A DNA stretch of 64,000 nt, taken from an uncultured Nitrososphaeraceae archaeon (GTDB taxonomy: Archaea; Thermoproteota; Nitrososphaeria; Nitrososphaerales; Nitrososphaeraceae). The notes below the pieces were generated by a model. The model worked only from the letters and a program-made list of their open reading frames with translations, made no database searches and was not told the DNA's origin. Each line of letters starts with the position of its first letter. Within the stretch, counting starts at the first letter, position 1. The stretch is from positions 96,001-160,000 of the forward strand of contig CAWIMJ010000050.1 in assembly GCA_963837175.1 (NCBI GenBank), in the 5' to 3' direction. A program made the position numbers and the translations under genes. This document shows positions 7,328-32,465 of the stretch, piece after piece.

Positions 7328-7987
7328 ATGATATATATAACAGAAAGAGATTTAAAAGCGCTATCGATAAACAGAGAAATGAAAAATATGTCTTTAAAAG
7401 CTGGTTTGTTATTAATATCAGTTGGTTTCGTTATTTGTATTATCATTGGTTCAGAATCCATATTTGCTCAATTAGAATCTACAAACATCAATAGTACAAA
7501 TGCTACTACTCCTATTAATATCACTGCAAGTTCTTTAGCTATGAGCTTGCAAAATCCAATAACAGGATCTTTTGGAGATGATCGCTTGACAGGTACAAGT
7601 GACATCGATATCATGATAGGTTTTCTAGGAGCAGATACAATACATGGTCTAGCAGGTGATGACGCAATTCAAGGCGATGAAGAACCGGATAAACTTTATG
7701 GTGATGCTGGCAACGATTTACTTCAAGGTGGCATAGGAAGTGATCAGCTATACGGAGGAGAAGGAGATGATATTCTCGCAGGAGGATTAGACGACGACTT
7801 TTTAGCAGGAGAAATCGGAAATGATAAGTTATATGGTGATGTGGGTGACGATATTTTGATAGGAGGACCAGATGCAGATTATTTTGACTGTGGAGACGGC
7901 ATAGATGTAATCATGGATTTTAATCTAACACAAGGAGACGATCGTGCTGGCAATTGTGAAGAAATAATTCAACTTCAAAGCTCGTAG
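7328..7987 (+). CDS. Secreted RTX/haemolysin-type Ca-binding repeat protein (start probably near 7379-7388)
   Basis: Signal peptide; multiple GGxGxDxLx nonapeptides; C-terminal DCGDGIDVIMDFN...GNCE. Confidence 0.85.
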   Translation: MIYITERDLKALSINREMKNMSLKAGLLLISVGFVICIIIGSESIFAQLESTNINSTNATTPINITASSLAMSLQNPITGSFGDDRLTGTSDIDIMIGFLGADTIHGLAGDDAIQGDEEPDKLYGDAGNDLLQGGIGSDQLYGGEGDDILAGGLDDDFLAGEIGNDKLYGDVGDDILIGGPDADYFDCGDGIDVIMDFNLTQGDDRAGNCEEIIQLQSS

Positions 7988-14426: not shown

Positions 14427-15116
14427 ATGTATGAACAGAAAATGATAGTAGTAGTTGTTTTGTCCGGAGTAGTAGCAATGTTATTTTTATTGTTTTCAGT
14501 TACTCCTGCCACTATTACCAACATCCATCAACAAGAAGCGTCCGCCTTTTTCCATGAAAAGTTGTTTGGAGGTAGTAGGAATTCTGACGCTCAACTTACA
14601 ACTGATATTAAACCCACAAATACAACTACGACTACTGCCACTTCCAAACAGACTGGAACTCCAGATAATGACGATATGAGGGGTTCAGATCAAAATGATG
14701 TTATAGTAGGTCTTGCTGGAAAGGATATAATTACAGGACAAGCAGGAGATGATAAAATTGATGGTTCTGAAGGAAATGATTACATAATTGGAGGCCCAGA
14801 CAATGATACTCTAATTGGTGGAGCTGGTATTGATGTAATTGAAGGTAATGCAGGAATTGACAATATATATGGTTCTGAAGGAAATGATTACATAATTGGT
14901 GGCCAAGGTGCGGATACTCTTAAAGGCGCAGCTGGCAATGATACTCTAATTGGTGGTCCAGGGGCTGATACTCTTGTTGGTGGCCCAGGTCAGGATAAGT
15001 TTATCTGCGATCAAGGAAATGATATAGTTTTAGATTTTAATGCTACTGAAGGCGACATTAAATCAAATGACTGCGAAGATAATACTAATAATAATAATAA
15101 TATAGCAGGAGAATAA
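14427..15116 (+). CDS. Secreted RTX/haemolysin-type Ca-binding repeat protein
   Basis: Signal peptide, Thr linker, GGxGxDxLx repeats, C-terminal ICDQGNDIVLDFN...NDCE. Confidence 0.88.
   Translation: MYEQKMIVVVVLSGVVAMLFLLFSVTPATITNIHQQEASAFFHEKLFGGSRNSDAQLTTDIKPTNTTTTTATSKQTGTPDNDDMRGSDQNDVIVGLAGKDIITGQAGDDKIDGSEGNDYIIGGPDNDTLIGGAGIDVIEGNAGIDNIYGSEGNDYIIGGQGADTLKGAAGNDTLIGGPGADTLVGGPGQDKFICDQGNDIVLDFNATEGDIKSNDCEDNTNNNNNIAGE
14761..14956 (+). repeat. Internal duplications within the RTX gene
   Basis: 31-bp identical copies at 14761 and 14869 (108-bp period); 21-bp identical copies at 14801 and 14936 (135-bp period). Confidence 0.85.
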
Positions 15117-15526: not shown

Positions 15527-17473
15527 TTAAACCATAATTTGCGGTCTATTTGAGAGATTCTTTGGAAGGTTTAATGGGAGATAAGGCTTGCTATTAGTCT
15601 GGATCTTTATTTCGTTAACAAGGTCTTCCATTTTAACATCGTTGCGTTGTTTCTTCTCGTTTCTATCTCTAACAATAAATTTTTGACTTTGCAGTTCTTT
15701 ATCGCCAATCACCAAAGTATAGCGAATCCATTCTGTCTCCGATTCTCTGATTTTTTTCCCAACTGATTCATCTCTATCATCAATGTCTGCTCTAATCTGT
15801 ACATTTGAAAGCTCTGTAGCTATTTTTTCACACAGATCTATATGCTGCTTACCAACTGGAATTAGGCGGACTTGGGTATGAGCTAGCCAGAGGGGAAAGG
15901 AAGCTATTCCACCAGCCTTTGAAATTTTAGCCGATCTTTCTAACAATGCGTAAATTATTCGTTCTACTGCACCGCTAGGCGAATTATGTAATATGATCGG
16001 ATTCTTGCGACTTCCATCTTCATCTACAAATTCTATTTTGTAACGAATGCCATTTTCTACATCTATCTGATCTGTAGAGAGTGCAGCAGCCTTGTCTGAG
16101 TTATCGATGAAATTAAACTCCCACTTCAATGTAAAATAAAAGAATCGCTCTTTCCACATCTCAACTATAATAGGCTTACCGAATCGGCTAACGATCTTAT
16201 TTATAAAATCCTTGTTTTCATTGTAAAAATCCTCTGTAAATCTTATTGCCATCTCTATGTCATCATTGGTTGACAATCCTAATTCATTTATCACAGTAAT
16301 CGATAATTCCAGTCTCTTCAAAAATTCTTCTTTAGCCTGGTCTAAGTCTCGGCAGATAGCATGGCAATCAGGCATACTAAAAGCTCTCAAACGTCTAAGA
16401 CCAACTAATTCTCCTCTTTTTTCATTTCTAAAACTATACCTAGTGAGTTCATATAATTTTAGTGGGAGGTGCTTATAAGATATTTGAAAATCCTTAGCCA
16501 TCAAAAATTGACCAAAGCAAGCAGCAAATCTCAAAAAAAGTTGTTTATTATCTGATGTTATATTATACTGACGCGCAGGAAATCGGTTAAAGTAACTTTC
16601 CATAGATGGATGTTTAGAATCATACATTATAGGAGTCTCGACTTCTATACCTCCATATTCCATTACTTTTTTAGTAACGTATTGTTCGATTAGTGACTTC
16701 ATTAATCTACCTTTTGGATAAAACCTCATATTTCCGAGATCGGAGGCTGGTTCATAATCTGCTATTGACAGCTTTTTCATTAATTTAACATGAGAAGGCA
16801 CTTCATCAACTGTCCTCTTCTTGGCCATCTCATAACTGGCAAGGATCTGCAGGTTTTGTTCTTGTTTTTTGAATTCAAATGTTCCCATAGGAGATAATTC
16901 ACCTCCAGGCCTGAGAATATACCAAGATGACTGTTGTTTTTCTTCTGCCTTTAAAGCAGTTGATAATTGCTCTTCAGTATGTTCACCATCCGCAACATTA
17001 CTAGTTGTGGCATTATTCTTATCTACAGTCTCATGCAAAATAACGCCCGAAGTAGTCTTCTGCTTTGTTAACACTTTGGCGCTTTCTGCCAAAGGATGTC
17101 CTTTGACCTTGATATTAAATGCCTTTGTCCAGCCAAAAGGTGCCATACTTACAACTACTTTCATGTCTTTTGCCAATCTCTCCGTTAATTTTAAGAGTTC
17201 ATAAGCGTATTTAGCAGAAGCAAGGTCAGAACTCAGATGCGCATACGGATAAATAAGTAGTCTTTTACTTTTCACAGTATCAAGATATTTTTTAATCTCC
17301 TCAACTGCAGCCTTTGCAACACTTTCATCATCTCCATGCTCCACAGCAATAAATGTAACAACAAGATCTTCATATCGAACCTTGGATCCATAGATATTTT
17401 CCTCTGCATCTTTAATTTCTTTAGATATGGGTTCGTATTCAATGAAATCTGAATGAAGATTAAGCATGCGCAT
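15527..17473 (-). CDS. thrS: Threonine--tRNA ligase (archaeal type, N-terminal editing domain)
   Basis: MRMLNLHSDFIEY, YPYAHLSS, FGWTKAF, LRFAACFG, GLRRLRAFSMPDCH, HNSPSGAVER. Confidence 0.97.
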   Translation of the reverse strand: MRMLNLHSDFIEYEPISKEIKDAEENIYGSKVRYEDLVVTFIAVEHGDDESVAKAAVEEIKKYLDTVKSKRLLIYPYAHLSSDLASAKYAYELLKLTERLAKDMKVVVSMAPFGWTKAFNIKVKGHPLAESAKVLTKQKTTSGVILHETVDKNNATTSNVADGEHTEEQLSTALKAEEKQQSSWYILRPGGELSPMGTFEFKKQEQNLQILASYEMAKKRTVDEVPSHVKLMKKLSIADYEPASDLGNMRFYPKGRLMKSLIEQYVTKKVMEYGGIEVETPIMYDSKHPSMESYFNRFPARQYNITSDNKQLFLRFAACFGQFLMAKDFQISYKHLPLKLYELTRYSFRNEKRGELVGLRRLRAFSMPDCHAICRDLDQAKEEFLKRLELSITVINELGLSTNDDIEMAIRFTEDFYNENKDFINKIVSRFGKPIIVEMWKERFFYFTLKWEFNFIDNSDKAAALSTDQIDVENGIRYKIEFVDEDGSRKNPIILHNSPSGAVERIIYALLERSAKISKAGGIASFPLWLAHTQVRLIPVGKQHIDLCEKIATELSNVQIRADIDDRDESVGKKIRESETEWIRYTLVIGDKELQSQKFIVRDRNEKKQRNDVKMEDLVNEIKIQTNSKPYLPLNLPKNLSNRPQIMV

Positions 17474-17719: not shown

Positions 17720-17929
17720 TCAGTCCCAACGAGCTCGTTCATTTTCCCGCTCGCTTTTGGAAGCCTTTTTCCACTCTCTGTAGTGTGCTTTACAAAGATA
17801 AATTCTTTTATTTGTTGAATCGAGATCCATATTTACTGCCATACTTGCTTTGCTTCCACTCATTGAACGTTGGGCCATTTGATCACAGCCCTGAATACTA
17901 CAGTTGACTCCTTTATCTACTCGACCCAT
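17720..17929 (-). CDS. Small putative Zn-binding conserved protein
   Basis: C-x4-C ... LCKAHY; basic C-terminus; co-oriented upstream of thrS. Confidence 0.75.
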   Translation of the reverse strand: MGRVDKGVNCSIQGCDQMAQRSMSGSKASMAVNMDLDSTNKRIYLCKAHYREWKKASKSERENERARWD

Positions 17930-18774: not shown

Positions 18775-20067
18775 CTAATCCAATAAATTCTCCTGAAAGG
18801 TCCATTTTTTGTTGAGTAAAAAGTTACTTATTGATGCAATTGCAATTGCAATGATTAAGGATACTCTATATTGTATTCCATAGTCTATTACTAGTAGATA
18901 TAATAGCAATAATTGAATACTAGCGCCTACGGCGCTGATACCTGCAAATGAGCAATACTGTTTCAAAGTCTTTCTTACAGATAAATCCCTATCTTCAAAA
19001 GTCCATATCTTGTTTAAGAAGAAGTTGGAGGTCGTTGATATAATTATTCCAACAAGTGTAGCCTGAAGATACCAGGTATTAGATAGAGATTTCACGGAGT
19101 TTGCAACATTATCGGCCAGCAAAAATGATACCAGATAATTTATCAGCAATCCGCTTGCGCCAACTGTGTAAAATCTGCTGGCCTTAGATAATAGTAACAC
19201 AGATTTGCGTCTCTCATCCTTCTTTTGTGAGCGCCGTTTTGATTTCTGTCCATATCTGTAAAGCTGCCAAACAGCTCCAGCATAATCAAGTATTACATTG
19301 AAATTCATCTTGCTTTGGCCAGATTTTCTATCGCGAAAGGTATACGGAACTTCTCTTACTCTAATATCTCTTGACTTTACTAATATTTCTAATAGTATTT
19401 TAAATCCCTTAGTATCAAATTTTATATTCTTTATCACATGACGAGGAAATGCAAAGAAACCAGACATAGGATCGCTAACATTGCGTACCTTCAATCCATG
19501 TCTTGCAATTTTAGCTGCTCCTTTGCTAATAACACGTCGTTTATATGGCCAGCCTATTATCGATCCACGGCTAATATACCGTGAGCCAATAACTATGCAA
19601 TTCGGATCCTTTCTTAACTCTTCTACTAACAGTGGTATAGTCTCTGGCGGATGAGAAAAATCAGCATCCATTATCAAGATACTCGCTCCCCTGGAAGATT
19701 CTATTCCTTCTAGAATCGCAGGAATAAGACCAGTCTTATCTTTTCTATGGATGACTCTGACTAAATATTTTTGGTTATCAACTTTAGAATGAATATGCTG
19801 CTGCAATGATGAATCAGTATCGATATTATTATGGATATAGTTTTCAACTATTTTGCCGGTCTCATCAGGAGAATTGTCATCGACTACTATAATTTCTGAA
19901 GTGATATTGGATGGAAGATTGCCCTTTATTGCATCTATCAGTTTCAGGATATTTTCAGATTCATTGTACGTTGGTATTATAATAGATAAGGTTGGTAATT
20001 TTGTATCTGATGCTAATTCTTCTGTATGTCCTAATTCCACTGTATCTATAGTTTTGCCATTAACCAT
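18775..20067 (-). CDS. Dolichol/polyprenol-phosphate mannosyltransferase-like GT2 fused to a GtrA-like membrane domain
   Basis: IIIPTYNE, VVDDNSPDET, MDADFSHPP, IGSRY, DPMSGFF, GFKILLE; C-terminal GtrA-like helices (VGASGLLIN, SNFLLNKKWTF). Confidence 0.9.
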   Translation of the reverse strand: MVNGKTIDTVELGHTEELASDTKLPTLSIIIPTYNESENILKLIDAIKGNLPSNITSEIIVVDDNSPDETGKIVENYIHNNIDTDSSLQQHIHSKVDNQKYLVRVIHRKDKTGLIPAILEGIESSRGASILIMDADFSHPPETIPLLVEELRKDPNCIVIGSRYISRGSIIGWPYKRRVISKGAAKIARHGLKVRNVSDPMSGFFAFPRHVIKNIKFDTKGFKILLEILVKSRDIRVREVPYTFRDRKSGQSKMNFNVILDYAGAVWQLYRYGQKSKRRSQKKDERRKSVLLLSKASRFYTVGASGLLINYLVSFLLADNVANSVKSLSNTWYLQATLVGIIISTTSNFFLNKIWTFEDRDLSVRKTLKQYCSFAGISAVGASIQLLLLYLLVIDYGIQYRVSLIIAIAIASISNFLLNKKWTFQENLLD

Positions 20068-20218
20068 CTATTAAGATTATGACTAAATAAACCAATATTT
20101 CTTATAGCTCTATCTACTTAAATAAGGATGTATTAAAGTAAATATTAAAAAAGGAATAGTAGAATAATACTTCACCTATGATATCAAGTCTTATGTTTTG
20201 CCAAGTTTAATTATCAAG

Positions 20219-21094
20219 TTACTTGTAAATAGTAAACTGGTCTATTGTCGTCCCATCTGCATTATCATAAAACTTGCCTGTTAGTGTTCTTCCATTATTT
20301 GTAATATCTACATTCAGCATACCAAAACCAATATACTGTTTAACAAAATAATCTTCTTTACCTCTAAAAGGATAAAGACTATCTCCTCCTGTGCCTACTG
20401 TAACAAATATCTGCCCATCAGGATCTGTATAGTTGGTTGTATTTGTACTGGTTTCTATTGGATGGCCTGGATTAACACTATTGAATTTGATAGGATATGT
20501 TCTCTGATAGTTGTGATTATGTCCTTGAAGTACAAGGTCTACTCCATACTGTTCAAACATAGGATGATAGATACTTCTTAAGAAAGTAATAGCAGGATGC
20601 GTACTTGGTAAGGTATACATTGGTCTATGGTAATATGCTATAATCCAATCTATGTTTGGATTTGATGCTGCCTTTGAAAGATTGTCCTTGACAAATTTAT
20701 ATTGTGCAGAATTTACATTGAATGAAACTTCTGTTGAAAGTGCAAGAAAGTGAATATTTTGGAGATCAAATGAATAATATTGTTCTCTGAGTCCAAAGTG
20801 GTTCATAAATGCAGGCAGCTTTTCATCGTCTCGATCATGATTTCCTATTGCAATTTTCATTTTTTCATCTATAGTATCTATTCTTTGAAACCAGCAATCT
20901 GCAGTACTTTCATAGGAGTAGTCACCTAACCCCAGCACTAATTCTGGTTTCTTGTCTACCATGTTGTCTACGGTATTCCTTGTGTCATCTGTACATCCCC
21001 AATCTCCCGCCGCTGCAAAGTTAAATTCGGAAGGAGTAATAAATGTGGGATGTGGTCTCATAGCAATAGATATAATTGTTATCGTTATCATCAA
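20219..21094 (-). CDS. Metallophosphoesterase, PAP-like (copy 3); true start may be a few codons upstream
   Basis: GDWG, GDYSY, GNHD, YYH, GHNH; hydrophobic N-terminus. Confidence 0.88.
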   Translation of the reverse strand: MMITITIISIAMRPHPTFITPSEFNFAAAGDWGCTDDTRNTVDNMVDKKPELVLGLGDYSYESTADCWFQRIDTIDEKMKIAIGNHDRDDEKLPAFMNHFGLREQYYSFDLQNIHFLALSTEVSFNVNSAQYKFVKDNLSKAASNPNIDWIIAYYHRPMYTLPSTHPAITFLRSIYHPMFEQYGVDLVLQGHNHNYQRTYPIKFNSVNPGHPIETSTNTTNYTDPDGQIFVTVGTGGDSLYPFRGKEDYFVKQYIGFGMLNVDITNNGRTLTGKFYDNADGTTIDQFTIYK

Positions 21095-21189
21095 AGCAGA
21101 AACAGCAAAAATAATGACTAAAAACTTATTCAGTTATGGTGCCTCCTGTATCTACGCAGGCTTTATCCTTGAAATCTCCATAATAATCC

Positions 21190-21643
21190 TTTCGAGTCTT
21201 AGAAAAAATCTGTATGATATGCAAGGATCTGTTCAATACCAATTATCCTGACTAGAAGAAATGCAGAAGATAACTTCAGCTAGACAAGGCTCATATAAAT
21301 TTTATTTTCCTTATGGGATTTTTAAGGATAATGAAAAAAATATATTGCAAGTATTAAGCCAAGATACTGCAAGAAAAATACTGATGTTTATTATTGAGCG
21401 AAATAATCCAACTCATACAGATATCGTAAACAGCATTGGAATATCAGCAGCATCTGTAAACTGGCATGTCAGACGCTTAATTGCTCTTAAAATAATATAT
21501 GAGATTAGATTAGAGACGGAAGGTACAAGAGATATCAACTTCCTGATAGTGCTGATTCCAAATACATAGTGGTATTGTTGAAGAATTATTATCCTGACAT
21601 TTGGGATAAGTGGAGTAATAGACAAGCCATGCTTGCAAAGTAA
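21190..21643 (+). pseudogene. Tandem winged-helix (ArsR-like) transcriptional regulator, disrupted
   Basis: QGSVQYQLS*LEEMQKI has an in-frame TGA at 21249; second HTH SIGISAASVNWHVRRL; 5-bp ATTAG duplication at 21504-21513 shifts the frame away from EIRDGRYKRYQL...YYPDIWDKWSNR. Confidence 0.75.
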
Positions 21644-21822
21644 TTTGATTATCAAAATCTATCATGCAAATCTTTATCATGATCTGCCTATCGAAAAATG
21701 TATGTAATAGAGATCAACATATTGCTAAAGGATACGATACATTTTTATTTTATCTAAAATTCTGATATATCATACCAGCTATGAGTTTAAATGCTGTTCT
21801 TAACAACATGATGTGAGAAAAT

Positions 21823-22893
21823 TTGTACTACTACTATAATATTCACAATATAGTTAAAGTTAAATCAGAAGTATTGTTATATGAACTTGAATATTTTGCA
21901 TCAAATGAATTTGATGACGCTGATATCCTTATTAATGTAAAGAACGCTATACTGTCTGGAATACATTTTAAAAGAACACTAACGCCAGATCCACATCCAG
22001 ACTATTACAAAGTAAATTACTCTGAGCACTTTGGATCTCTTGGTGCACAGTTTTCAATGGAATTTTCAGATAAAGTTAATATTTCTATAAACAAACTGAT
22101 AACCAAATCTAGGCATGTTATATACGTGAATTTAGTAGAGCCTATGTTGCGTTTTTTACTAATATCCAAGGGTTTTGTTCTTCTTCACTCTGCCTGTATT
22201 GATATTAAGGGAAATGGTATTCTTTTTTCTGCACCACCAGATACAGGAAAAACAACAACTGTATTAAAGTGCATCAAGAGTGGCTTTTCCTTTTTATCTG
22301 ATGATATGACAATAGTGCGTTTACCAAACGAAGCCATGTGTTTCCCAAAGCCTATGACTATAAGTTCACATACATACAAAACAGCTACCACGGTAGCAGA
22401 TAATGATCATGACAAAATACAGTACAGGCTACGTAGTTTGATCCATTCAAAAACTGGTAGACAATTTATGCATAAACTTGCCAAGTATAATGTACCTATA
22501 TTTACATTAAATACCATAGGACAGGCAATAATTAAACCCCCGAAATTTAAGATCGAAAGTTTATTGCAATCAGTCACTATTCAGGAAAAAACCCAAGTTA
22601 AGAGTTTGTATTTTTTGGAAAGAGGAGGTAATGAGCAAATGGAAGAGATTCCCACAAAGGTCGCATTAAGAAAAGCAATAGAGAACAGCGATGATGCATT
22701 TTTATTTCCCCCCTATGCTGATTTAATCCATCATATTAATATCGGGGGTAAGACGGCAAAGGAATTGCTACAAGAAGAGAGAAGTTTGTTAGAAAAGTTT
22801 TTGACAGGTGTAAACTGTTGGATAATCAAAAGCAACAAAAGAGCATGGTATCAAATGATTATGCAAGTTGATCAGCCGAAGGTTAATAAATAG
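21823..22893 (+). CDS. HPr-kinase-like P-loop protein of unknown substrate
   Basis: LLHSACI, Walker A APPDTGKTT, FLSDDMT (HPrK/PEPCK-type H...GKT...DD signature). Confidence 0.75.
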   Translation: MYYYYNIHNIVKVKSEVLLYELEYFASNEFDDADILINVKNAILSGIHFKRTLTPDPHPDYYKVNYSEHFGSLGAQFSMEFSDKVNISINKLITKSRHVIYVNLVEPMLRFLLISKGFVLLHSACIDIKGNGILFSAPPDTGKTTTVLKCIKSGFSFLSDDMTIVRLPNEAMCFPKPMTISSHTYKTATTVADNDHDKIQYRLRSLIHSKTGRQFMHKLAKYNVPIFTLNTIGQAIIKPPKFKIESLLQSVTIQEKTQVKSLYFLERGGNEQMEEIPTKVALRKAIENSDDAFLFPPYADLIHHINIGGKTAKELLQEERSLLEKFLTGVNCWIIKSNKRAWYQMIMQVDQPKVNK

Positions 22894-22945
22894 AATAGAG
22901 GAGTTCCCTTGTAGAAACTTAAGGAAATATAATGAGTATAGATAA

Positions 22946-24106
22946 ATGAAATTGCGATTTTTAAGTTCTCATAAAGGGCTAATTTATATAACTTTGGGAA
23001 ATCTGGTAGGTGCTGCGGCCACTGGTATATTTTGGCTGCTTCTGGCCTTTATTCAAAATGCACATGAATACGGAAGGACTAACTATGAAATATCTATAGC
23101 ATCATTAGCGGCAAGTGCTGCTCTTCTTGGCCTTAACACCACCGTTACCACCTATGTTGCAAAGGGCTCAAGCAAAATAAATGTACAAGCGAACCAAATA
23201 ATACTCCTTTCTTGTGGAGTTGCTGCCATAATAGTTGCTTTCTTCAACTGGATGCTTGCTTTCTTCGTCATTGGCATGGCCTTCTGGATGATGAGCAGTT
23301 ATGAACTTCTTGGAAGAAAAATGTACAAACAGTATGCGTTTGTCATTATTGGAGCAAGGGCATCACAACTTTTTCTATCTATCTTATTGTATTATCTTTT
23401 AGGAATAACGGGTATAGCAATTGGTTTTATTATTTCTTTTCTTATATTTAGCCAAAGATATTTTATTTCTACTAGACAATTTAGTAAAGATTTTAGTGAA
23501 ATCAAAGATAAAATGAAGTTTTCATTGAATGTATATTCTTTTAATATGTCCAATGCATTCCTGTTGTATTTTGATAAACTCGTCATTGCACCTTTATTTG
23601 GTTATGCTGTGCTAGGATATTACCAGCTTGGTTTTCAATTCTTATTATTTCTAGGAATGATTCCTATTAGCTTTTATCAATATCTTATTTCTGAAGACAC
23701 AAGTGGTCTAAAACAGACAAGGGTAAGGTTTTTCGGTTTGTTGGTTTCAATAGGGCTCACTGCATTATTATTTTTATCGAGTCCATGGATATTGCAACAT
23801 TTATTTCCTCACTATACTGCTTCTCTTGATGCCATGAGAATTTTGAGCATAGGAATTATTCCTATGATGTTAGTTTGGACTCTTAATTCAAAGTTTCTTA
23901 ACATAGGCGATACCAAATATGTTCTATTTGGATCTGCAATTTATCTGACATTCCAGATAAGCTTAATTTTTTATCTGGGGAACGCACTGAAGGTAATCGG
24001 TCTTGCATTAGCTGTCGTGCTTGCACTGATCGCACAGGCATCATTCTTATTTATATCCGACAAGCACCTACAGCATAAGAATAAGAATAATAGTTATAAT
24101 TCATAA
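22946..24106 (+). CDS. Wzx/MOP-superfamily oligosaccharide flippase
   Basis: About 12 TM helices; FDKLVIAPLFGYAVLGYYQLG. Confidence 0.85.
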   Translation: MKLRFLSSHKGLIYITLGNLVGAAATGIFWLLLAFIQNAHEYGRTNYEISIASLAASAALLGLNTTVTTYVAKGSSKINVQANQIILLSCGVAAIIVAFFNWMLAFFVIGMAFWMMSSYELLGRKMYKQYAFVIIGARASQLFLSILLYYLLGITGIAIGFIISFLIFSQRYFISTRQFSKDFSEIKDKMKFSLNVYSFNMSNAFLLYFDKLVIAPLFGYAVLGYYQLGFQFLLFLGMIPISFYQYLISEDTSGLKQTRVRFFGLLVSIGLTALLFLSSPWILQHLFPHYTASLDAMRILSIGIIPMMLVWTLNSKFLNIGDTKYVLFGSAIYLTFQISLIFYLGNALKVIGLALAVVLALIAQASFLFISDKHLQHKNKNNSYNS

Positions 24107-24164
24107 TAGACTAACAGTGTTATGTAGACAGAAAGACAGACAGAGAGGGAGAGCGAGCGAACTA

Positions 24165-24201
24165 GAGTCGAAAGAAAAGAAAAGAAAAGAATAAATAAAA
24201 T
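24165..24201 (-). terminator. Oligo-T tract terminator candidate for the GH5 gene; (GAAAA)n on the plus strand
   Basis: TTTTATTTATTCTTTTCTTTTCTTTTCTTTC on the minus strand just downstream of the stop at 24215, between convergent genes. Confidence 0.5.
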
Positions 24202-24214
24202 TGCTTTCTGCAAG

Positions 24215-25465
24215 TTAACTTGTAGAATTTCTTGATGTGATTTCAGGAAAGATGCTTGAATATGCATTTTTAACAATATCAAAGTACTTTGTTGTTTGTA
24301 TGGCTCCTGTGGCGTCTGTAGTTATGAGATTATAGTTTGCTATCTGATGAGTATCAATATTCCATTGCCAGTATGCCATTCCCCAAACACCAACATCCTT
24401 GAATGTTTTAACAATGAGATTGGCCTCAGTCTGATTTATATTACTTAGGTCAGGGTTTATCTCTGTTACAATATCGCCTTGTTCATTAATGCTACTCTGG
24501 CGTACAACGTTATTCCATTCTCCTATATACAAAGGAACTCCTGCCAGTTTTCCTGCTTGAACGAAAATATTGAGCCTGTCTCCCTGATAACTATTAGGAG
24601 AAGGTACACCATACAGGCTAACTTTGAATACAACATTTGTTTTATCAGCTGGAGCCATTTTTGCCAAATTGTCAGGATTTACAGCGATGGGCCCCTTAAG
24701 ATCTACTGGTATATTCATACTGTATGCTATTGTTTTTTGAGTAAGGGTTCTCAATTCATTTGTAATTAATGTATTGAAGCTTCCTATCTTTTCCCATTGA
24801 TCTACATTATGTACTTGAGGTTCACTCAGTATTTCATAACCTAAGGTACTTTGATGAGAATCTACAGTAGTTACTATTTTTTTCAAAAACTCTGTCAATA
24901 ACGTCCAACCATCTCTTCCATTGACATCCTTTACCAATCTATTCCACCAGTCTGTCCACCATAGCTGTGCAGCTGGAAATTTGGTTCCACCTCCACCACC
25001 TGAAGGATATATGGGATTACTTTCAAAAAGAAAAGATGGAAATCCTGTTCCTCTTTGAGGATTCAGCCATGATGAGGTATGGAATTGGTGGTTATCATAG
25101 ATGACCTTTATTCCCCATTTATCAGCGGCGTTTGCAACAGTGGTTAACTCATTCATAAAAGAAGCAGGATCTTTTACATATGATTCCCAATAAAATATAA
25201 ACCGTACATGATTCATACCTGCTTCTGACAGTATCCTGAAAGAATCTTCAAAATAATTTGCTGGTAAATCATAAGAAGGATTTCTTGCTTGCGGGTCGCG
25301 AGTATAAAAACCACTCATATCCACTCCAAGATAAGGTACGTTTCCCTTAGTCTGCTGGGCTGATACTACTGCTATAGAGGGAGTAATGATAATAAGAATA
25401 CTAATGATGATAATTGAGGATAGAAATTTTAATGAGTTAATATTTTTATTCAATTTGTGATTCAA
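24215..25465 (-). CDS. Secreted GH5-like (clan GH-A) glycoside hydrolase
   Basis: Signal peptide; GMNHVR, YDNHQ, acid/base GYEILSEP, nucleophile LYIGEW, GMAYW. Confidence 0.8.
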   Translation of the reverse strand: MNHKLNKNINSLKFLSSIIIISILIIITPSIAVVSAQQTKGNVPYLGVDMSGFYTRDPQARNPSYDLPANYFEDSFRILSEAGMNHVRFIFYWESYVKDPASFMNELTTVANAADKWGIKVIYDNHQFHTSSWLNPQRGTGFPSFLFESNPIYPSGGGGGTKFPAAQLWWTDWWNRLVKDVNGRDGWTLLTEFLKKIVTTVDSHQSTLGYEILSEPQVHNVDQWEKIGSFNTLITNELRTLTQKTIAYSMNIPVDLKGPIAVNPDNLAKMAPADKTNVVFKVSLYGVPSPNSYQGDRLNIFVQAGKLAGVPLYIGEWNNVVRQSSINEQGDIVTEINPDLSNINQTEANLIVKTFKDVGVWGMAYWQWNIDTHQIANYNLITTDATGAIQTTKYFDIVKNAYSSIFPEITSRNSTS

Positions 25466-25648
25466 TCAATGAATCTCTTACTTTCGTTTTTATATTTCTA
25501 TCTATCACTCTTAAATGGTAGGCACCATTTCCCATTTTTTGATCATATTCTAAAATATTATGATATCCATATATACCAATTTATAAAAAGAAATATGTTT
25601 TTGTTAAATTTATGAAACGTTTAATTATAATAGTATGGCTTAAACGCT

Positions 25649-27649
25649 TTGAACCGCGTTAATGTATCATCACCACATCTATTTAGATCAATGAAATCTA
25701 TGAGACAAATATTGCCAACAATTTTGATTTTAATTGGAATTGCACCCTTTTTACTAATATCAATTACAGTCGATATATCAGGGAAATTAAGTTACATATC
25801 AGACGACACACAGAGTCTCAGACCTTTGTCAGTTAATCCATCAAAAGCGGATGAACAGAAAATCCTACCAAGGAGCAATTCTTTTTGTGTGAATTATGAT
25901 AATAAGACTATGACGATAAACATTTGTGGAGGGAAGATGGACATGACAGCACTTGATAGTGTCATAAATAATTCAAAAGTTTTGAATCAAATATCACCTA
26001 AAAATTGGTTTCTTAATGCCAATATTTCAATAGCAAAAGGTGCGACTCTTTTTATTAATTCTACCGATACAGATTGGTTGAAAATAAATTCAACAAGAGG
26101 AACAGCATATTCAATAGTAACAAAAGGGAATTTGCTCATAGACAATACAAAGATATCTTCATGGAATTTCACAACCACGTCAGATACTCTGTTGAATTCT
26201 AAAAATGAGCCTAGGAGTTATTTAATAGTCCCTTGGGACAGCACAGGACAGATGAATATAACTAATTCAAATTTAAGTTATTTGGGATATGACAGTGGGA
26301 AAGATAATACAGGAGGCATCTCCTATTATGCCGGTGATGGCAGTATTATTTTTAATAATTATTTTTCTTTTAATTATAAAGGTTTTCAGGTATCTGGCAA
26401 TGTGTCAGATATTATGTTCGTAAATAATACAATTAATAATAGCTATCAAGACGGATTGGTAGCTGGTATCAACTCTACTAATCTTCAAATATACAATAAT
26501 GCAATTTACAATAACACAAACCATGGTATAGTTTGCTCAGAATTATGTAAAAACATCTTGGTCAATAATAACTCTGTTTATAATAACACCGGAAATGGAA
26601 TCTTCTTAAACCAATCTACAGTAAACTCTGAGATCGAGAATAATTCAGTATATTACAATGGTCGTTCCGGTATAATACTATCTAATTCATCGAGAAATGT
26701 CATTACCAATAATACAATTGACGGAAATTTCTTTGGTGTAATACTTAGTCAAAGCTCCCATGATAATTCAATTCAACAAAATAATATCAAAAATACCCAA
26801 TTAAATGGTATCTTTCTCTACGAAAACTCCAATAATAATACGCTCAAAAATAATATCATAAGAGAATCTAGAGGCAATGGCATATATGTTCAAGGTAACG
26901 GGACAGCTAATAATATTTTTATCAAAAATAATGTAACTAGAGGGGCAAGCTATGGCATTCAATTTTTGAATGCTTCTACTAATATCCTCCTAGATAATAC
27001 GATATATAATAATTCCAACTCTAATTATTACGGACAGTCCGGAAGTACCAATATTATAGCGAATACTATATTTAATCATACTACAATAGGTGTATCCGAA
27101 GATAACAGCAGCTTTGTCTTACGCTATACAAATAACGGAATTAGTGGAGTTTCTCCTAAAAGAATAGTTAATACTGCTTATCCTTCCAATACAACTATTC
27201 TGATAACTCCAATCAGTAACAAAATAATTTTAGATACCTACAAAATGAATGTAATTCCTTCCTCTAATTATGTTAATGTATCTTCTTTTAATGACGATTT
27301 CAACTCTAATGAAACGTATAAAAAATGGTCAGAGATTTCACCACCAGCTCCTGCTATACCTATTACAACGAGATATACGGTAGGTGGATTTGAGCCCAAT
27401 AAACAAATTGCGATCAACGTAAATGGTTCATTTTGGAACGCCTATACTTCTAATTCATCAGGATACATCACGTTTCTTTATGAAGATGGACATTATACAC
27501 TAAAGCGATTTGAAGCTGAAGCCAATAATACACCAGCCTTAGCAGCAATACTGTTCCTTGTGATTATCGTCGTAGGTCTAATAACGCTATTTGTTATAGT
27601 TAAAAAACGCAAGAGTGTAAATAAGATCCCTAAACATCAGATCGGTTGA
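25649..27649 (+). CDS. Right-handed beta-helix protein (NosD/AlgG-like) with C-terminal membrane anchor
   Basis: N-terminal hydrophobic helix; many NNxxxNNxxxGIxL PbH1 repeats; WFLNANISI...WLKI...ISSWN...PRSYL...LSYLGY N-terminal region; C-terminal TM followed by KKRK. Confidence 0.85.
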   Translation: MNRVNVSSPHLFRSMKSMRQILPTILILIGIAPFLLISITVDISGKLSYISDDTQSLRPLSVNPSKADEQKILPRSNSFCVNYDNKTMTINICGGKMDMTALDSVINNSKVLNQISPKNWFLNANISIAKGATLFINSTDTDWLKINSTRGTAYSIVTKGNLLIDNTKISSWNFTTTSDTLLNSKNEPRSYLIVPWDSTGQMNITNSNLSYLGYDSGKDNTGGISYYAGDGSIIFNNYFSFNYKGFQVSGNVSDIMFVNNTINNSYQDGLVAGINSTNLQIYNNAIYNNTNHGIVCSELCKNILVNNNSVYNNTGNGIFLNQSTVNSEIENNSVYYNGRSGIILSNSSRNVITNNTIDGNFFGVILSQSSHDNSIQQNNIKNTQLNGIFLYENSNNNTLKNNIIRESRGNGIYVQGNGTANNIFIKNNVTRGASYGIQFLNASTNILLDNTIYNNSNSNYYGQSGSTNIIANTIFNHTTIGVSEDNSSFVLRYTNNGISGVSPKRIVNTAYPSNTTILITPISNKIILDTYKMNVIPSSNYVNVSSFNDDFNSNETYKKWSEISPPAPAIPITTRYTVGGFEPNKQIAINVNGSFWNAYTSNSSGYITFLYEDGHYTLKRFEAEANNTPALAAILFLVIIVVGLITLFVIVKKRKSVNKIPKHQIG

Positions 27650-27694
27650 CAATGACAAAAAATATTGTGCGTGCACGATAATGAGCAGTGGCTC

Positions 27695-28618
27695 TTATTT
27701 TCTTAGCCAAGGAGATTGTGACGAGATTAATTCCTCCATCTTTTGATTAATATCAAGGGCTACCTTAAGCAAATCTGGATTTAACTGCAACTTTTTAATA
27801 AGTCCAGCTAATGCTTCCGTGTCTTTTGGCAAACATGCTCCCTCAAATGGTTTACCGAACTGCGTTCCATAGTTTCCTATCCTCTTGTCCAGCGAAACAC
27901 CTAAACTCACAGCCTTGTCATCGATTCCCATTTGCTTACAAGCCAAGCCGATTTCATTAAAGAAGGATATTTTAAGTGAAAGAAAGCAATTGGAAGCATA
28001 CTTTATCATTTCAGCAGCTTCATAACTAGTTACAACAATATTGGGAGTTAATTGCTGGTAGATTTCCTTAAGAGGTTCCGAGCCTCCTTTGTCATCTTCT
28101 CCTATAACTACTCTGTCTGGCTTAAAAAAATCCTCCAAAGCAGTATTTTGCCTCAAGAATTCTGGATTAAAACAAATATTATAATCTCTTCCAATCACAG
28201 AGAATGGACAATTGCTTTGTAAATAATTAATAACTACATTTCTCATGGTCCCAGGAAGCATGGTACTTCTGAAAACAATAAGATGAGGATTGCGTCGGTC
28301 TTGTTGTTGTCGTCCGTTTCTAGTACCGAGCGCATTTGCTATGTCATAGAGGACAGACATAAGTTGTGATAAATCCTGCTCGCCATTGTTCTTAGCAGGA
28401 GTATTTACACAAACAAATGAAAGATCTGTTTTATCTATGATTTCTGACACGCTTGATGCAACTTTGTAGCCATTATCCTCTAGATCACGTAGTCGTTGTT
28501 TGGAGATATCGTAGAATGTTATATCATGACCCAGTTTGTGAAAGCCCTTACCTGTTGCACTTCCAACAACACCTGAGCCGATAATCCCAATCTTTTTCAA
28601 TACTAATCTATCAGTCAT
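27695..28618 (-). CDS. UDP-glucose/GDP-mannose dehydrogenase family protein (short form)
   Basis: GSGVVG Rossmann motif, CVNTP, RSTMLPGT, NPEFLR, AEMIKYASN, catalytic GACLPKD. Confidence 0.92.
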   Translation of the reverse strand: MTDRLVLKKIGIIGSGVVGSATGKGFHKLGHDITFYDISKQRLRDLEDNGYKVASSVSEIIDKTDLSFVCVNTPAKNNGEQDLSQLMSVLYDIANALGTRNGRQQQDRRNPHLIVFRSTMLPGTMRNVVINYLQSNCPFSVIGRDYNICFNPEFLRQNTALEDFFKPDRVVIGEDDKGGSEPLKEIYQQLTPNIVVTSYEAAEMIKYASNCFLSLKISFFNEIGLACKQMGIDDKAVSLGVSLDKRIGNYGTQFGKPFEGACLPKDTEALAGLIKKLQLNPDLLKVALDINQKMEELISSQSPWLRK

Positions 28619-28700
28619 TTTCCTCTTATAGACCTTCTTCTCAAAGTGTTAAATAGATATTTATATACTCCTATATCTTCTTATTTGATAAAGTTTTGAT

Positions 28701-28727
28701 TTATCTTACAAAGTATTTTGTAGATAA
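28701..28727. promoter_or_regulatory. Imperfect palindrome in the divergent promoter region
   Basis: TTATC(T)TACAAA-gtat-TTTGTAGATAA: 11-bp arms with a 1-nt bulge. Confidence 0.35.
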
Positions 28728-28842
28728 TATATAAAGAAGTATTTAGAACAATATTTTTCCATTCAATTAATAACAGCTTCATATCTAATAGCTAATTAGG
28801 GCAATGGATATATAGAGAGAAAAAGATGAAAAATTTGTTCAA

Positions 28843-30297
28843 ATGAGCCTGGAGATGAGGTCTATAGATCTGATAGTTTTTCCAACCATTGCCTTAATGG
28901 TAGTAATCATATTTCTTATCTCCTTATCGGTATTCCTTCCATCTTGGTTTAATTTTTCTATACTTGGAATCGACATTATCGGTTTTGCTGCAAGATTCAC
29001 AGATGAACTAGGCAGCATACTGGTTAGAAGTGCTGAAAACTTTTTGATCTATATACCCTTAGGAATAATCGGGCTTTGGAGATGGGGAGTGTGGCTATTT
29101 AAGAAATTAGGTTCGTTATGTTATAGCCCGATAAATCCAGGAAATCAAATAGAAAATCACACATTTGCTATAATAACACCGGTCTATAATGAAAATCCAA
29201 GCGTTTTCAAAACAGCATTGCATTCGTGGCAATCAAATAAGCCTGATGAATTGATTGCAGTAATAGATCAACGAGATCTGCATTGTATTAAAATATTTCA
29301 GGAGTTTGCTCAAGATAAGCCATGGACAAAACTCATAGTTACTTCAAAGCCTGGCAAAAGACCCGCATTGGCAGATGGGATTTTAGCATCAAAATCTGAG
29401 ATCGTGGCGCTAGTGGATTCAGATACGATATGGGGGCATAATATAAGAGATAACTTGCTTGCGCCATTTCAAAATGCTATGATAGGAGGGGTTACTACAC
29501 TACAGCATCCGATAGAGCGTAATTCCATATGGCAAAAGATGACAGATGTCTTTTGGGATATGAGAAATTATTATGATTTGCCTTCTCAAACAGCAATGGC
29601 AAAAGCATTGACATGTCTTTCTGGAAGAACATCTTTATATCGTCGGCAAATAATATTGCCTAAACTAAATGAATTTCTCAATGAGATCGTTTTTGGAAGA
29701 AAAAAAGAATCCGGTGAAGATAAATGCCTTACAAGATTAGTTCAAAGGGATGGCTGGAAAACTTACTATCAAAGCAATGCGGTAGTATTCTCTTCGGCAG
29801 CTTCCGACTTTAAAACCTTTTGGAATCAGAGAATTCGTTGGTCTCGAAATAGTCATAATTCGGATATTATCAGCTTGTGGGATGGGTGGGCATGGAAGAA
29901 TCCCTATCTTGCTTTCTATATGATAGACAGATTTATTACAATATTCACCCTATTCTTTGGACCGATATTTTTCTCGATTTCACTTTATTTGAATGACTGG
30001 GTTGTGGCATTATCTATTGTAGCTTTGTGGATCTGTGGTAGAGGTATAAAAATAATACCTCATTTAAGACGACATCCAGAAGATATCTATCTAATCCCGG
30101 TATACGTAGTAATAAACTTTTTACTCGCATTGGTGAAGTTATATGCTCTGGTGACTATACGAGAACAGAAATGGATTAGAGGGGTAGAAGAAAGAAGCGT
30201 AAAACGCAAAGGATACCTTAAGAAAATAAAAGACATCGTTCTCACTACAGAGATAATCTTTAGTATTGCACTTTTCGCATTTTTCGTACTTCAATAG
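28843..30297 (+). CDS. Processive membrane GT2, hyaluronan-synthase/NodC-like
   Basis: PVYNE, GKR, VDSDT, CLSGRTSLYR, GEDKCLT, QRIRWSR; N- and C-terminal TM helices. Confidence 0.88.
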   Translation: MSLEMRSIDLIVFPTIALMVVIIFLISLSVFLPSWFNFSILGIDIIGFAARFTDELGSILVRSAENFLIYIPLGIIGLWRWGVWLFKKLGSLCYSPINPGNQIENHTFAIITPVYNENPSVFKTALHSWQSNKPDELIAVIDQRDLHCIKIFQEFAQDKPWTKLIVTSKPGKRPALADGILASKSEIVALVDSDTIWGHNIRDNLLAPFQNAMIGGVTTLQHPIERNSIWQKMTDVFWDMRNYYDLPSQTAMAKALTCLSGRTSLYRRQIILPKLNEFLNEIVFGRKKESGEDKCLTRLVQRDGWKTYYQSNAVVFSSAASDFKTFWNQRIRWSRNSHNSDIISLWDGWAWKNPYLAFYMIDRFITIFTLFFGPIFFSISLYLNDWVVALSIVALWICGRGIKIIPHLRRHPEDIYLIPVYVVINFLLALVKLYALVTIREQKWIRGVEERSVKRKGYLKKIKDIVLTTEIIFSIALFAFFVLQ

Positions 30298-31340: not shown

Positions 31341-32140
31341 GGCTCTGTTAACTTAAGAACATCATCATCTCATTTTGAATAAGTTTATTATGAATATCCG
31401 CAAACATACTCAACCAATTTATAACGTGATACAATTTGCATCTTTTTCTTCTTCTTCTTAGTACAAGGAAAATAATAATATCATCAAAACTTTCAGTCCT
31501 GTCCTTAAAATATTGTACTGTTCTTTCTTTCTATATATGATATACTTTTTTCAAATGAAGAATATATGTAGATGATGATGATGTTTTAATTTCAGAAATT
31601 TGCAGGCTTGTGGTGGTGGTAGATACCATGTACCACCACCATCTGAAGATACTTTACTTTATGTTTTGCCTATTTTATTACTAAATGCTTCAGAAACTGT
31701 TCTGCTGCTACTACAATCATATTTCTTCTTTCCAATGAAAGGTGAATTTCTAAAACTTACTTACTTCCTTATTTATTGGATGGTTTTATAATAGCAACGA
31801 ACCCATAACATAACCAGAAATAGTCCTTGCCTATTTGAATGAATTAGGGTTTCATCAATGATAAATTCAGAAATCCTTTTTCTTTTACACAGTATATTTT
31901 TTGGGGATTATAATGATGCTGCTGTAACCACTTTTAAATTGAAACATGACTTCTTTTTTTAACAAATGGAGATAAAGCTTTTGAGGACGTATCTCTAAAA
32001 GATAATCCTAAAAAATAATATATATAAGTATAACCCATAACAAACGTACTTTGCAGACGTTCTGTTTCTTTTAAATAAATATGTGCATAAAAGAAGTAGG
32101 ATTCATCCAGCTATAGATTTATCGCTAAGTTAACAGAGCC
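31341..32140 (-). mobile_element. IS6-family insertion sequence, 800 bp, with a pseudogenised transposase
   Basis: Perfect 15-bp terminal IRs GGCTCTGTTAACTTA (31341-31355) and TAAGTTAACAGAGCC (32126-32140); broken frames give RNRT..YGLYLY, LGLSFRDTS, EFIIDETL, SSDGGGTWY, QYFKDRTESFDD. Confidence 0.92.
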
Positions 32141-32465
32141 CCTTATATCATTATATCTACCTCTCGCTTAATGATAGGACAAAACACTTGAGATTGAAAT
32201 TTGAAATAATACATCTTATATAACTCTAGCTAACTATTAACTACTAAGAAATTCTATTAGAAGCTTCTTTTTTATTGGATATTATCATAAGCTTAAAATT
32301 GACTATTGCAAAGGCAGTAAATTAGAATGCATATTCGCTAGGATTTCTGTAGTAAGATCTCAATAAATTCCTCACGTTCTTTATTATATTGCATTATATT
32401 ACATAAAATTAATGATACATACATACAGACTGTTTAAATGATATAAATGCGTGTTCGTTAAACAC

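Follow-up and report, generated by a model that had tools for sequence, protein, structure and literature searches.

What do the genes around a predicted processive glycosyltransferase of an uncultured Nitrososphaeraceae archaeon make, and how many of them act together? The stretch of DNA considered here (the window) comprises 64,000 nucleotides of assembly GCA_963837175.1, namely positions 96001-160000 of contig CAWIMJ010000050.1 (C50). It belongs to a genome of 3.81 Mb in 58 contigs that is 91.5% complete, has a GC content of about 33% and encodes an archaeal AmoA (E 2.7e-118); the nearest public relatives of this genome are uncultured Nitrososphaeraceae metagenome-assembled genomes (MAGs). 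An initial annotation had described a contiguous locus of nine genes, encoding a dolichyl-phosphate mannose synthase (DPMS)-like glycosyltransferase, a phosphatase, a helix-turn-helix (HTH) regulator, an HPrK-like protein, a flippase-like protein, a glycoside hydrolase of family GH5, a beta-helix protein, a nucleotide-sugar dehydrogenase and a glycosyltransferase family 2 (GT2) synthase. All nine open reading frames (ORFs) are found at the coordinates given there, and the domain calls agree according to Pfam and NCBIfam. The locus is surrounded by housekeeping genes, with the threonyl-tRNA synthetase (ThrRS) gene at 15527-17473 and eRF1, CysRS and MetRS downstream. The conserved unit is the synthase, the short dehydrogenase and the GH5 hydrolase, with or without the beta-helix protein, and usually lies beside ThrRS. 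This module appears to be a real synthase-dependent system whose product is probably a polyuronate. In the window it consists of the following features:

24215..25465, minus strand: GH5-family glycoside hydrolase of 416 amino acids (aa), predicted to be secreted, with a signal/transmembrane segment at residues 18-36
25649..27649, plus strand: AlgG-like right-handed beta-helix protein of 666 aa, predicted to be extracellular (Pfam Beta_helix/NosD; AlgG matches in PDB)
27695..28618, minus strand: short NAD-dependent 6-dehydrogenase of the UDP-glucose dehydrogenase (UGDH)/GDP-mannose dehydrogenase (GMD) family, 307 aa, consisting of an N-terminal and a central domain
28619..28842: divergent intergenic region of 224 bp between dehydrogenase and synthase, a putative shared promoter region to judge from the head-to-head gene order
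28843..30297, plus strand: processive membrane GT2 synthase of 484 aa with a predicted class I hyaluronan synthase (HAS) fold

The synthase was surveyed in 61 related genomes (E<=1e-20) and found in 17 of them; it is present in all six other genomes of the same genus and in 16 of the 36 genomes of the family, and in none of the 24 genomes from other families of the order. The short dehydrogenase occurs in the identical 16 family genomes, and the remaining 20 are without both genes. In one genome, G024, the dehydrogenase match reaches no more than 37% identity, on a contig other than that of the synthase, and beyond the family the dehydrogenase matches are mostly full-length, with open frames of 422-465 aa. 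A set of 80 synthase loci of 2.2-21 kb was also drawn from one genome per species, with neighbours identified by tblastn (E<=1e-8); some of these loci share genomes with the earlier locus set, and the two sets are not independent. The initial annotation had made its proposal hang on the genes being conserved together, and for the four core genes this is what was observed: all 16 carriers of the synthase have the dehydrogenase, and the short dehydrogenase was identified in 73, the GH5 gene (within 10 kb) in 57 and the beta-helix gene in 32 of the 80 loci, with ThrRS in 50. The DPMS-like gene was found in ten of these loci, the HPrK-like gene in five, the flippase-like gene in four, the phosphatase gene in one and the HTH gene in none. 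In every archaeal locus holding both, dehydrogenase and synthase stand head to head. Among the seven loci without the dehydrogenase, the synthase lies at a contig edge in five, and another (L062) represents a second synthase copy.

The core is best seen as a vertically inherited four-gene module of Nitrososphaeraceae, a reading held together with that of a mannuronan-type product at a confidence a little above even. The 4.5-kb stretch carrying the phosphatase, HTH, HPrK-like and flippase-like genes is a genus-particular insertion, and the view of the whole 11.5-kb locus as one system has to be given up, since the five flanking genes are genus-specific, multi-copy or loosely linked. The additional synthase copy (L062:9857-11308) is a paralogue of 62% identity from a MAG in which the full module is also present (L072); no dehydrogenase adjoins it, and its neighbours are PMT_2, glucose/sorbosone dehydrogenase and NHL-repeat genes.

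For the synthase, the assignment to GT2 by Pfam and NCBIfam is accompanied by a best NCBIfam match to NodC (98 bits against a cut-off of 550) and by weak matches to Glyco_transf_21 and HpnI, and the NCBIfam and Pfam tables of the locus contain no Alg8- or Alg44-type match. Its GT-A domain has the DxD, G(D/E)D and QxxRW motifs of GT2 enzymes of the HAS/NodC/chitin synthase type, in the form of DSD (residues 192-194), GEDKC (291-295) and QRIRW (329-333); DSD, GEDKC and Q329, R332 and W333 are invariant in 31 homologues, and the motifs align to those of the Chlorella virus enzyme (Cv-HAS). Sequence matches in PDB are to the Chlorella virus and Xenopus hyaluronan synthases (E 3e-7 to 1e-5). In the AlphaFold2 (AF2) model (pLDDT 83.6), three N-terminal and five C-terminal helices are present, and model and Foldseek alignments agree in placing N- and C-terminal transmembrane and interface helices around the glycosyltransferase domain. 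The top 13 Foldseek matches are all HAS (E 4e-20 to 2e-16, TM-score 0.62-0.68), aligned over nearly the full length (455-494 columns) at 17-20% identity, followed by BcsA, PcManGT and chitin synthases (E 1e-11 to 1e-8). As modelled, the protein is a processive synthase-translocase of the HAS fold, and its donor sugar is not readable from the sequence.

It could be proposed from these matches that the polymer is hyaluronan-like or of a glucuronan type and not mannuronan, with UDP-GlcA as donor, alone or together with UDP-GlcNAc, like the products of hasA/hasB systems, and that the beta-helix protein acts on glucuronate or serves as a scaffold. The best sequence and structure matches of the synthase are indeed class I HAS, and NodC stands first in NCBIfam. 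However, no Alg8-type mannuronan synthase appeared among the PDB results, so that a ranking with HAS as the nearest fold is biased, and GEDK is invariant at the position where HAS and NodC have GDDR or GEDR, its lysine standing where arginine would be expected.

The dehydrogenase differs from the enzymes commonly associated with this family in its length. Both the NAD-binding Rossmann domain (PF03721, E 2.8e-32) and the central domain with the catalytic cysteine in GxCxPKD (PF00984, E 1.5e-25) are present, and TIGR03026 is matched with 231 bits against a cut-off of 189.8; the C-terminal nucleotide-sugar-binding domain PF03720 is missing. The match covers model positions 1-302 of 413, the stop codon follows directly after the central domain, and a gap of 45 bp separates the gene from the convergent beta-helix gene. 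The only PF03720 domain of the genome lies on contig C13, in a 534-aa UDP-ManNAc-dehydrogenase-like gene. The earlier assignment to UDP-glucose/GDP-mannose dehydrogenases is correct as to family and not as to a full enzyme. The truncation does not represent decay, as the short length is conserved across orthologues: all 52 complete orthologous ORFs encode 287-335 aa, and the closest 120 database proteins have 299-320 aa and are likewise without PF03720. Of the 150 top-ranking cluster representatives (clusters at 50% identity), 74 have 260-345 aa and 66 have 381-500 aa, and a FastTree phylogeny divides them into 67 short plus five N-terminally extended forms and 63 long plus 11 short forms with a Shimodaira-Hasegawa (SH)-like support of 91. 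As these trees carry local SH-like support only, with no approximately unbiased (AU) test or IQ-TREE analysis, the apparent monophyly of the short dehydrogenases is a lead and not a tested clade. Eight longer proteins among the representatives were checked as possible dehydrogenase-synthase fusions, and none has a GT2 domain; five contain PF03720 and three do not, and their extra length consists of a second dehydrogenase copy, a response regulator, DUF4214, a nucleotidyltransferase domain or unassigned N-terminal sequence.

Seven residues, D37, T119, K206, N210, C262, K265 and D266, are the same in all of 57 short homologues; in UDP-glucose dehydrogenase they would correspond to the NAD-ribose Asp and to catalytic Thr, Lys, Asn, Cys and Asp residues. 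The protein looks functional. Its AF2 model is confident (pLDDT 93.9). The C-terminal region of about 120 aa is also said to have been reported missing from the Ectocarpus enzyme by Tenhaken et al. in 2011. For Saccharina japonica, one study describes recombinant GMDs of 320 and 315 aa that oxidise GDP-mannose with NAD+ (Km 177-289 uM, product identified by HPLC/MS) and have the motifs GxGxVG at 14-19 and GGxCLPKDV at 259-267 (PMC4782291). The window protein has a length close to that of these brown-algal enzymes and equivalent motif positions, with GSGVVG at 14-19, P257 and EGACLPKDT at 259-267 including C262, as compared with the figures printed in that paper and not with the algal sequences. 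Since the short Saccharina GMDs are active, as described there, the short architecture can work alone on a nucleotide sugar (PMC4782291). A short dehydrogenase of 301 aa (46% identity) was also found in genome G041 (L133:8339-9244), where it overlaps a GT4 gene in an unrelated glycan cluster with a DegT aminotransferase, an epimerase/dehydratase and several methyltransferases.

The beta-helix protein (PF13229, E 4e-32) has an N-terminal transmembrane segment at residues 21-39, a C-terminal anchor at 633-651 and 33 N-x-S/T sequons. It is a right-handed parallel beta-helix (CASH) homologous to AlgG: its best PDB matches are the AlgG structures 4nk8, 4nk6 and 4ozy at about E 5e-15, that to 4nk8 (E 4.9e-15) extending over residues 109-396. 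The tetrapeptide DPHD is typical of the catalytic site of mannuronan C5-epimerases (ManC5-E) according to PMC11468063. In an alignment of 18 sequences, the corresponding column reads VAGI or VAHI in the window's genus, NLDS, KLDT or NMES in other archaeal genera, and DPHT in the archaeal genus g10 (L051, L063), and the motif is by this alignment lost in the beta-helix of the window's genus. A Nitrosocosmicus study lists 'nosD' in the genus-unique genome and asks about a role in N2O reductase maturation (PMC11559005). Genes annotated as Beta-helix/NosD that adjoin the synthase, such as that in the Nitrosocosmicus-labelled locus L094, look polysaccharide-related instead; as a caution, such beta-helix genes should not be annotated as nosD.

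The hydrolase contains the (beta/alpha)8 Cellulase domain of GH5 (PF00150, E 3.3e-12) with two glutamates, E215 in SEP and E316 in GEW, which are invariant in 56 orthologues and which, going by the NEP/GEW pattern, would be the catalytic acid/base and nucleophile pair; a PDB sequence search with this protein gave no match. Neutral beta-1,4 glucans or mannans are the usual substrates of GH5 enzymes, and the synthase might accordingly make a neutral polymer or oligomer (chitin-like, beta-glucan, beta-mannan or a NodC-like oligosaccharide), and the dehydrogenase might serve another glycan or act as a reductase. Such a product would also be in keeping with NodC and chitin synthases among the relatives of the synthase, with the lack of an epimerase motif in the window's beta-helix and with the short dehydrogenase in the different glycan cluster of G041. 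It is nevertheless improbable, given the strict co-occurrence of synthase and dehydrogenase (in the family, all 16 carriers have the two genes and all 20 non-carriers lack both, with adjacency in 73 of 80 archaeal and nine of ten Patescibacteria loci), the invariance of the catalytic residues of the dehydrogenase and, in orthologous modules, a beta-helix of the DPHD uronate-epimerase type fused to the synthase.

These orthologous modules belong to ultra-small bacteria. Among the 80 loci, L078 is found on a contig that is clearly bacterial, as it also encodes Obg, MgsA, RmuC and a type IV pilin motif, in a genome of 0.5 Mb, and a synthase of 40-46% identity was detected in ten of 301 Patescibacteria genomes (E<=1e-40). 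Of the ten loci, nine have a short dehydrogenase of 294-330 aa directly upstream, and in nine the beta-helix either follows directly downstream or is fused with the synthase. Five intact fusion ORFs (L126-L130) of 855-961 aa have the order GT2, LysM and beta-helix, the LysM domain being present in four of the five. For the fusion beta-helix of L127, the AlgG match has an E value of 5.6e-36 and brings the DPHD motifs of both proteins into register; its eight PDB matches are all mannuronan C5-epimerases. The motif is conserved in three of seven Patescibacteria beta-helices (L127, L128, L132), and one has DPYN. All five genes flanking the archaeal module are absent from the Patescibacteria modules. 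AlgG-type epimerases act on uronate residues of a polymer, and this epimerase-type beta-helix, fused to the synthase and next to the dehydrogenase, speaks most strongly for a polyuronate as the product of the module. Further beta-helix paralogues are located nearby in L126, L129 and L130. Two loci, L078 and L106, are of mosaic composition, as their synthase is archaeal-like (59-62%) and their dehydrogenase bacterial-like, and in a second FastTree phylogeny the bacterial and archaeal partner dehydrogenases fall in separate groups of short forms.

Six soil metatranscriptome runs contain 26-31% of the sampled words of the core. Contigs of at least 95% identity from four runs of four studies cover the DPMS-like, GH5, dehydrogenase and synthase genes in every run, and such contigs lie on the HPrK-like gene as well. 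Most of the beta-helix gene, the flippase-like gene and the intergenic stretches are not covered, these gaps being not informative; RNA libraries may contain DNA, and contigs give neither expression level nor strand. In contigs of two runs, a 3-nt insertion (GTC) at window position 28308, in the low-complexity QQQ region of the dehydrogenase, looks like strain variation.

The following scheme may be put forward for the module. The cytoplasmic short dehydrogenase would oxidise C6 of a nucleotide-hexose with NAD to give a uronate donor, with GDP-mannuronate favoured and UDP-glucuronate possible, and the HAS-fold GT2 synthase, whose fold is better established than its presumed substrate, would polymerise the donor and export the chain via its own membrane channel. 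Outside the cell, the nascent chain would be received by the membrane-anchored beta-helix protein. In the window's genus the latter might guide, bind or otherwise process the polymer, probably without epimerising it; a role as guide or binder is suggested because DPHD is lost in this genus. The secreted GH5 hydrolase, with both glutamates kept, may trim or release the polymer. The DPMS-like, purple-acid-phosphatase-like, HTH, HPrK-like and flippase-like genes would not be needed. To this extent, the earlier proposal of a core of processive synthase and nucleotide-sugar dehydrogenase, with beta-helix and hydrolase, holds.

Several observations weigh against a mannuronan-like product of such a scheme. 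The nearest solved relatives of the synthase use UDP-GlcNAc and UDP-GlcA and not GDP-ManA, and no Alg8-like match to it was obtained in NCBIfam. The best family matches of the dehydrogenase are the UDP-glucose enzymes AglM (195 bits) and TuaD (163 bits), and PDB entry 3vtf (E 7.5e-46) is slightly better than AlgD 1mfz (E 1.6e-42); these scores favour UDP-glucose enzymes slightly, and UDP-glucose may be the substrate in place of GDP-mannose. The short dehydrogenase type is not tied to the HAS-fold synthase, since the same type occurs in the GT4/aminotransferase cluster of G041. Ten protein clusters that were looked up contain no algal name. With bacterial and archaeal partner dehydrogenases in separate groups, the partnership with the synthase may have been assembled more than once. 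The window's beta-helix has VAGI in place of DPHD (VAHI in L038 of the same genus), and most archaeal orthologues are also without the motif. Polyuronates are usually cut by lyases and not by GH5 hydrolases, and PF05426 lyases were not found in the 91%-complete genome; PF08787 gave no match in the genome either, which is uninformative as its control also matched nowhere. LysM, which usually binds GlcNAc-containing glycans, may point to a GlcNAc polymer in Patescibacteria. The RNA-library contigs are a hint of expression and no proof of transcription, and for every member of the module the product is a prediction.

That the polymer is acidic is nonetheless fairly probable. If it is, the mannuronan type would be somewhat the better candidate, and a glucuronate-containing type would keep a substantial share of credence. 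The hyaluronan-like or glucuronan-type product introduced above gains from the highest scores of the dehydrogenase (AglM, TuaD, 3vtf) and from the LysM domain of the Patescibacteria fusions. It is opposed by the eight of eight mannuronan C5-epimerases among the PDB matches of the L127 beta-helix and by the fact that, to our knowledge, every known DPHD beta-helix epimerase acts on mannuronan. The biochemically tested short dehydrogenases that were found are GDP-mannose enzymes only (PMC4782291). On balance, this alternative appears unlikely, and a secreted uronic-acid-containing beta-glycan, most likely mannuronan- or alginate-like, is preferred as the putative product with a confidence a little above even.

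The remaining five genes of the locus and the element on its right side are as follows:

18775..20067, minus strand: DPMS-like GT2 with a GtrA-type C-terminus of four transmembrane segments, 430 aa, loosely linked to the module
20219..21094, minus strand: purple-acid-phosphatase-like metallophosphoesterase, 291 aa (Pfam Metallophos; GDWG/GDYSY/GNHD/GHNH pattern)
21261..21569, plus strand: winged-HTH ORF (HTH_24, E 1.4e-6), 102 aa, inside a 404-bp repeat
21823..22893, plus strand: HPrK-related P-loop protein, 356 aa (HPrK_C E 1e-4, below the Pfam cut-off)
22946..24106, plus strand: flippase-like (MOP/Polysacc_synt-like) membrane protein, 386 aa, with about nine transmembrane segments (Polysacc_synt_3 E 7.8e-4, below the cut-off)
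31341..32144, minus strand: IS6-family-like element of about 805 bp with a broken transposase frame, adjoining the module and not part of it

The DPMS-like protein belongs to the archaeal type of dolichyl-phosphate mannose synthase with four transmembrane segments, and its entire length is covered by a match to the Pyrococcus enzyme (5mlz, E 1.6e-52; residues 26-423 aligned with 24-371); its AglJ score is 62 bits against a cut-off of 325, and a paralogue (58%) lies 26 kb upstream at C50:88413-89600. The phosphatase gene has DNA paralogues of 85%, 81% and 73% identity elsewhere, including one at window 3353-4163. The HTH ORF lies in a 404-bp repeat (window 21225-21628) that has a copy of 98.5% at C21:68703-69106 and a copy of 78% on C10; the ORF probably was inserted recently and does not belong to the module. 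The regulator had been called dead, and nothing in the analyses run shows this. The repeat may be a small mobile or duplicated unit. For the HPrK-like protein, the ORF and the P-loop described before were recovered and the family match is weak, so that it counts as a member of an uncharacterised family; an Atlas search with it returned unnamed clusters only. The Atlas neighbours of the flippase-like protein are 'oligosaccharide flippase' clusters with scores of 0.99-1.0, and the membership of its gene in the module is doubtful.

The initial annotation had taken all these genes as an 11.5-kb system in which an acidic polymer is decorated via Dol-P-sugar and the flippase and is phosphorylated or dephosphorylated by the HPrK-like and phosphatase-like proteins. 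The genes lie side by side, in an order that recurs within the genus (L024, L030, L031; L037, L038, L040, L041), the DPMS-like gene adjoins the GH5 gene in genus g10 (L026, L032), and RNA-library contigs were found on the DPMS-like and HPrK-like genes. This arrangement is nonetheless quite improbable as a functional unit in view of the locus counts (four, five, one and none of 80 for the flippase-like, HPrK-like, phosphatase and HTH genes), of the multiple genomic copies of the phosphatase and HTH genes and the 58% paralogue of the DPMS-like gene, and of the Patescibacteria modules, where the five genes are absent; no support was found for lipid-linked decoration or phosphorylation of the polymer. 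A locus for protein N- or O-glycosylation or for glycolipid synthesis instead of an exopolysaccharide is very improbable. The DPMS-like and flippase-like genes, the weak Glyco_transf_21 and HpnI matches of the synthase and the 33 sequons of the beta-helix protein would agree with such a function, but neither the oligosaccharyltransferase AglB nor another Agl-type family was detected in the scan of 36 ORFs of the window, the synthase shows the complete HAS architecture with multiple transmembrane segments and QxxRW, and partnership with a dehydrogenase, an extracellular hydrolase and an epimerase-type beta-helix is the established pattern of synthase-dependent exopolysaccharides.

IS6 remnants had been noted on both sides of the locus. 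The right one stands as an IS6-like element: the sequence at 31341-32144 matches the genome's own IS6 transposases by tblastn (E 1e-21, split over frames), and the element has five copies of 94-96.5% (on C25, C3, C48, C8 and C10) and dozens of diverged ones. The left one, near 18.3 kb, does not, having matches of E 0.4-5 only, and a repeat search of the two flanks gave short AT-rich matches only. The transposase domain DDE_Tnp_IS240 (PF13610) is matched 23 times in the genome, several times with internal stops, and nowhere within the window, including the element at 31341-32144.

Other genes of the window may be mentioned. Three Metallophos paralogues lie within 18 kb (3345-4274, 12748-14031 and 20219-21094), with more on C50 and C51, and two RTX-repeat proteins (7328-7987 and 14427-15116) are located among those of the window. 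A 69-aa Cys-rich protein without a family match (17720-17929) is found beside ThrRS in 48 of the 80 loci. A second GT2 of 490 aa (46969-48441) lies about 17 kb downstream of the module, and two S-adenosylhomocysteine hydrolase paralogues are encoded at 41349-42578 and 62284-63540.

Soil ammonia-oxidizing archaea (AOA) are among the principal nitrifiers, and little has been learnt so far of what their surface polymers and biofilm matrix consist of; in PMC11559005, the outer layer of Nitrosocosmicus is left open. The four-gene module provides a concrete target for heterologous expression and for the study of extracellular polymers. The cross-domain result weighs more, namely a short dehydrogenase and a HAS-fold synthase that is fused to an AlgG-type beta-helix in Patescibacteria, and it suggests a second, Alg8-independent route to polyuronates. 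The synthase is also a testable candidate for the type of the brown-algal mannuronan synthase. It is a speculative and rather unlikely idea that the HAS-fold GT2 is a mannuronan synthase unrelated to Alg8, in a module common to Patescibacteria and soil AOA that is the counterpart or possible source of the brown-algal pathway; if the synthase were of this kind, Nitrososphaeraceae would provide the first known case of alginate-type polyuronate synthesis in archaea. Searches of the literature on AOA exopolysaccharide or hyaluronan synthase, truncated UGDH, archaeal alginate or C5-epimerase and Patescibacteria alginate or HAS returned no description of the module, in line with the earlier statement that no characterised archaeal pathway of such a composition was known. 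What is new is the list of parts (short dehydrogenase, HAS-fold synthase, AlgG-like beta-helix and GH5) and its distribution in soil AOA and Patescibacteria; synthase-dependent polyuronate systems are already known.

Among these, bacterial alginate synthesis in Pseudomonas and Azotobacter follows the same logic, in which a dehydrogenase provides the donor for a GT2 synthase and an AlgG-type beta-helix and a depolymerase act outside the cytoplasm. AlgG is the best solved match of the module's beta-helix (E 5e-15 in the window, 5.6e-36 in Patescibacteria), and AlgD (1mfz) the second-best of its dehydrogenase. However, AlgD has the C-terminal domain that the module dehydrogenase lacks, the module synthase resembles HAS and NodC with no Alg8-type match obtained, and the beta-helix of the window's genus is without DPHD. 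The canonical alginate operon with Alg8 synthase, Alg44 PilZ co-polymerase and AlgL-type lyase is not what was found: the module has no PilZ/Alg44, outer-membrane parts or alginate lyase, and GH5 stands in the place of the lyase. Class I HAS systems, in which hasA is paired with hasB in streptococci and a HAS gene with a UGDH gene in Chlorella viruses, share the single-protein synthase-translocase fold, the DxD, G(D/E)D and QxxRW motifs and a family-related dehydrogenase partner; the module differs from them in an identity of 17-20%, in GEDK instead of GDDR, in its short dehydrogenase and in the additional beta-helix and GH5 proteins. A two-gene core is likewise known from the pneumococcal type 3 capsule, an acidic polymer made by the processive GT2 Cps3S and the full-length UDP-glucose dehydrogenase Cps3D without Wzx/Wzy and without beta-helix or GH5, in contrast to the short dehydrogenase, beta-helix and GH5 of the module.

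The brown-algal alginate pathway may be compared on the basis of published descriptions and not of algal sequences. The archaeal module adds GH5, the beta-helix of the window's genus lacks DPHD, and the genes are clustered, and fused in bacteria. The algal epimerases carry DPHD as do some orthologous modules, and for the algal synthase a GT2 unlike Alg8 is expected; in PMC11468063, the algal mannuronan synthase is a GT2 candidate with none validated, and algal GT2s are described as not homologous to Alg8. The same study gives as the best prokaryotic match of the brown-algal GMD, at 40%, a protein of Candidatus Woesebacteria, which belong to the candidate phyla radiation (CPR; PMC11468063). The brown-algal GMDs themselves are short (315-320 aa), have the same motif positions as the module dehydrogenase and are of proven activity on GDP-mannose (PMC4782291).

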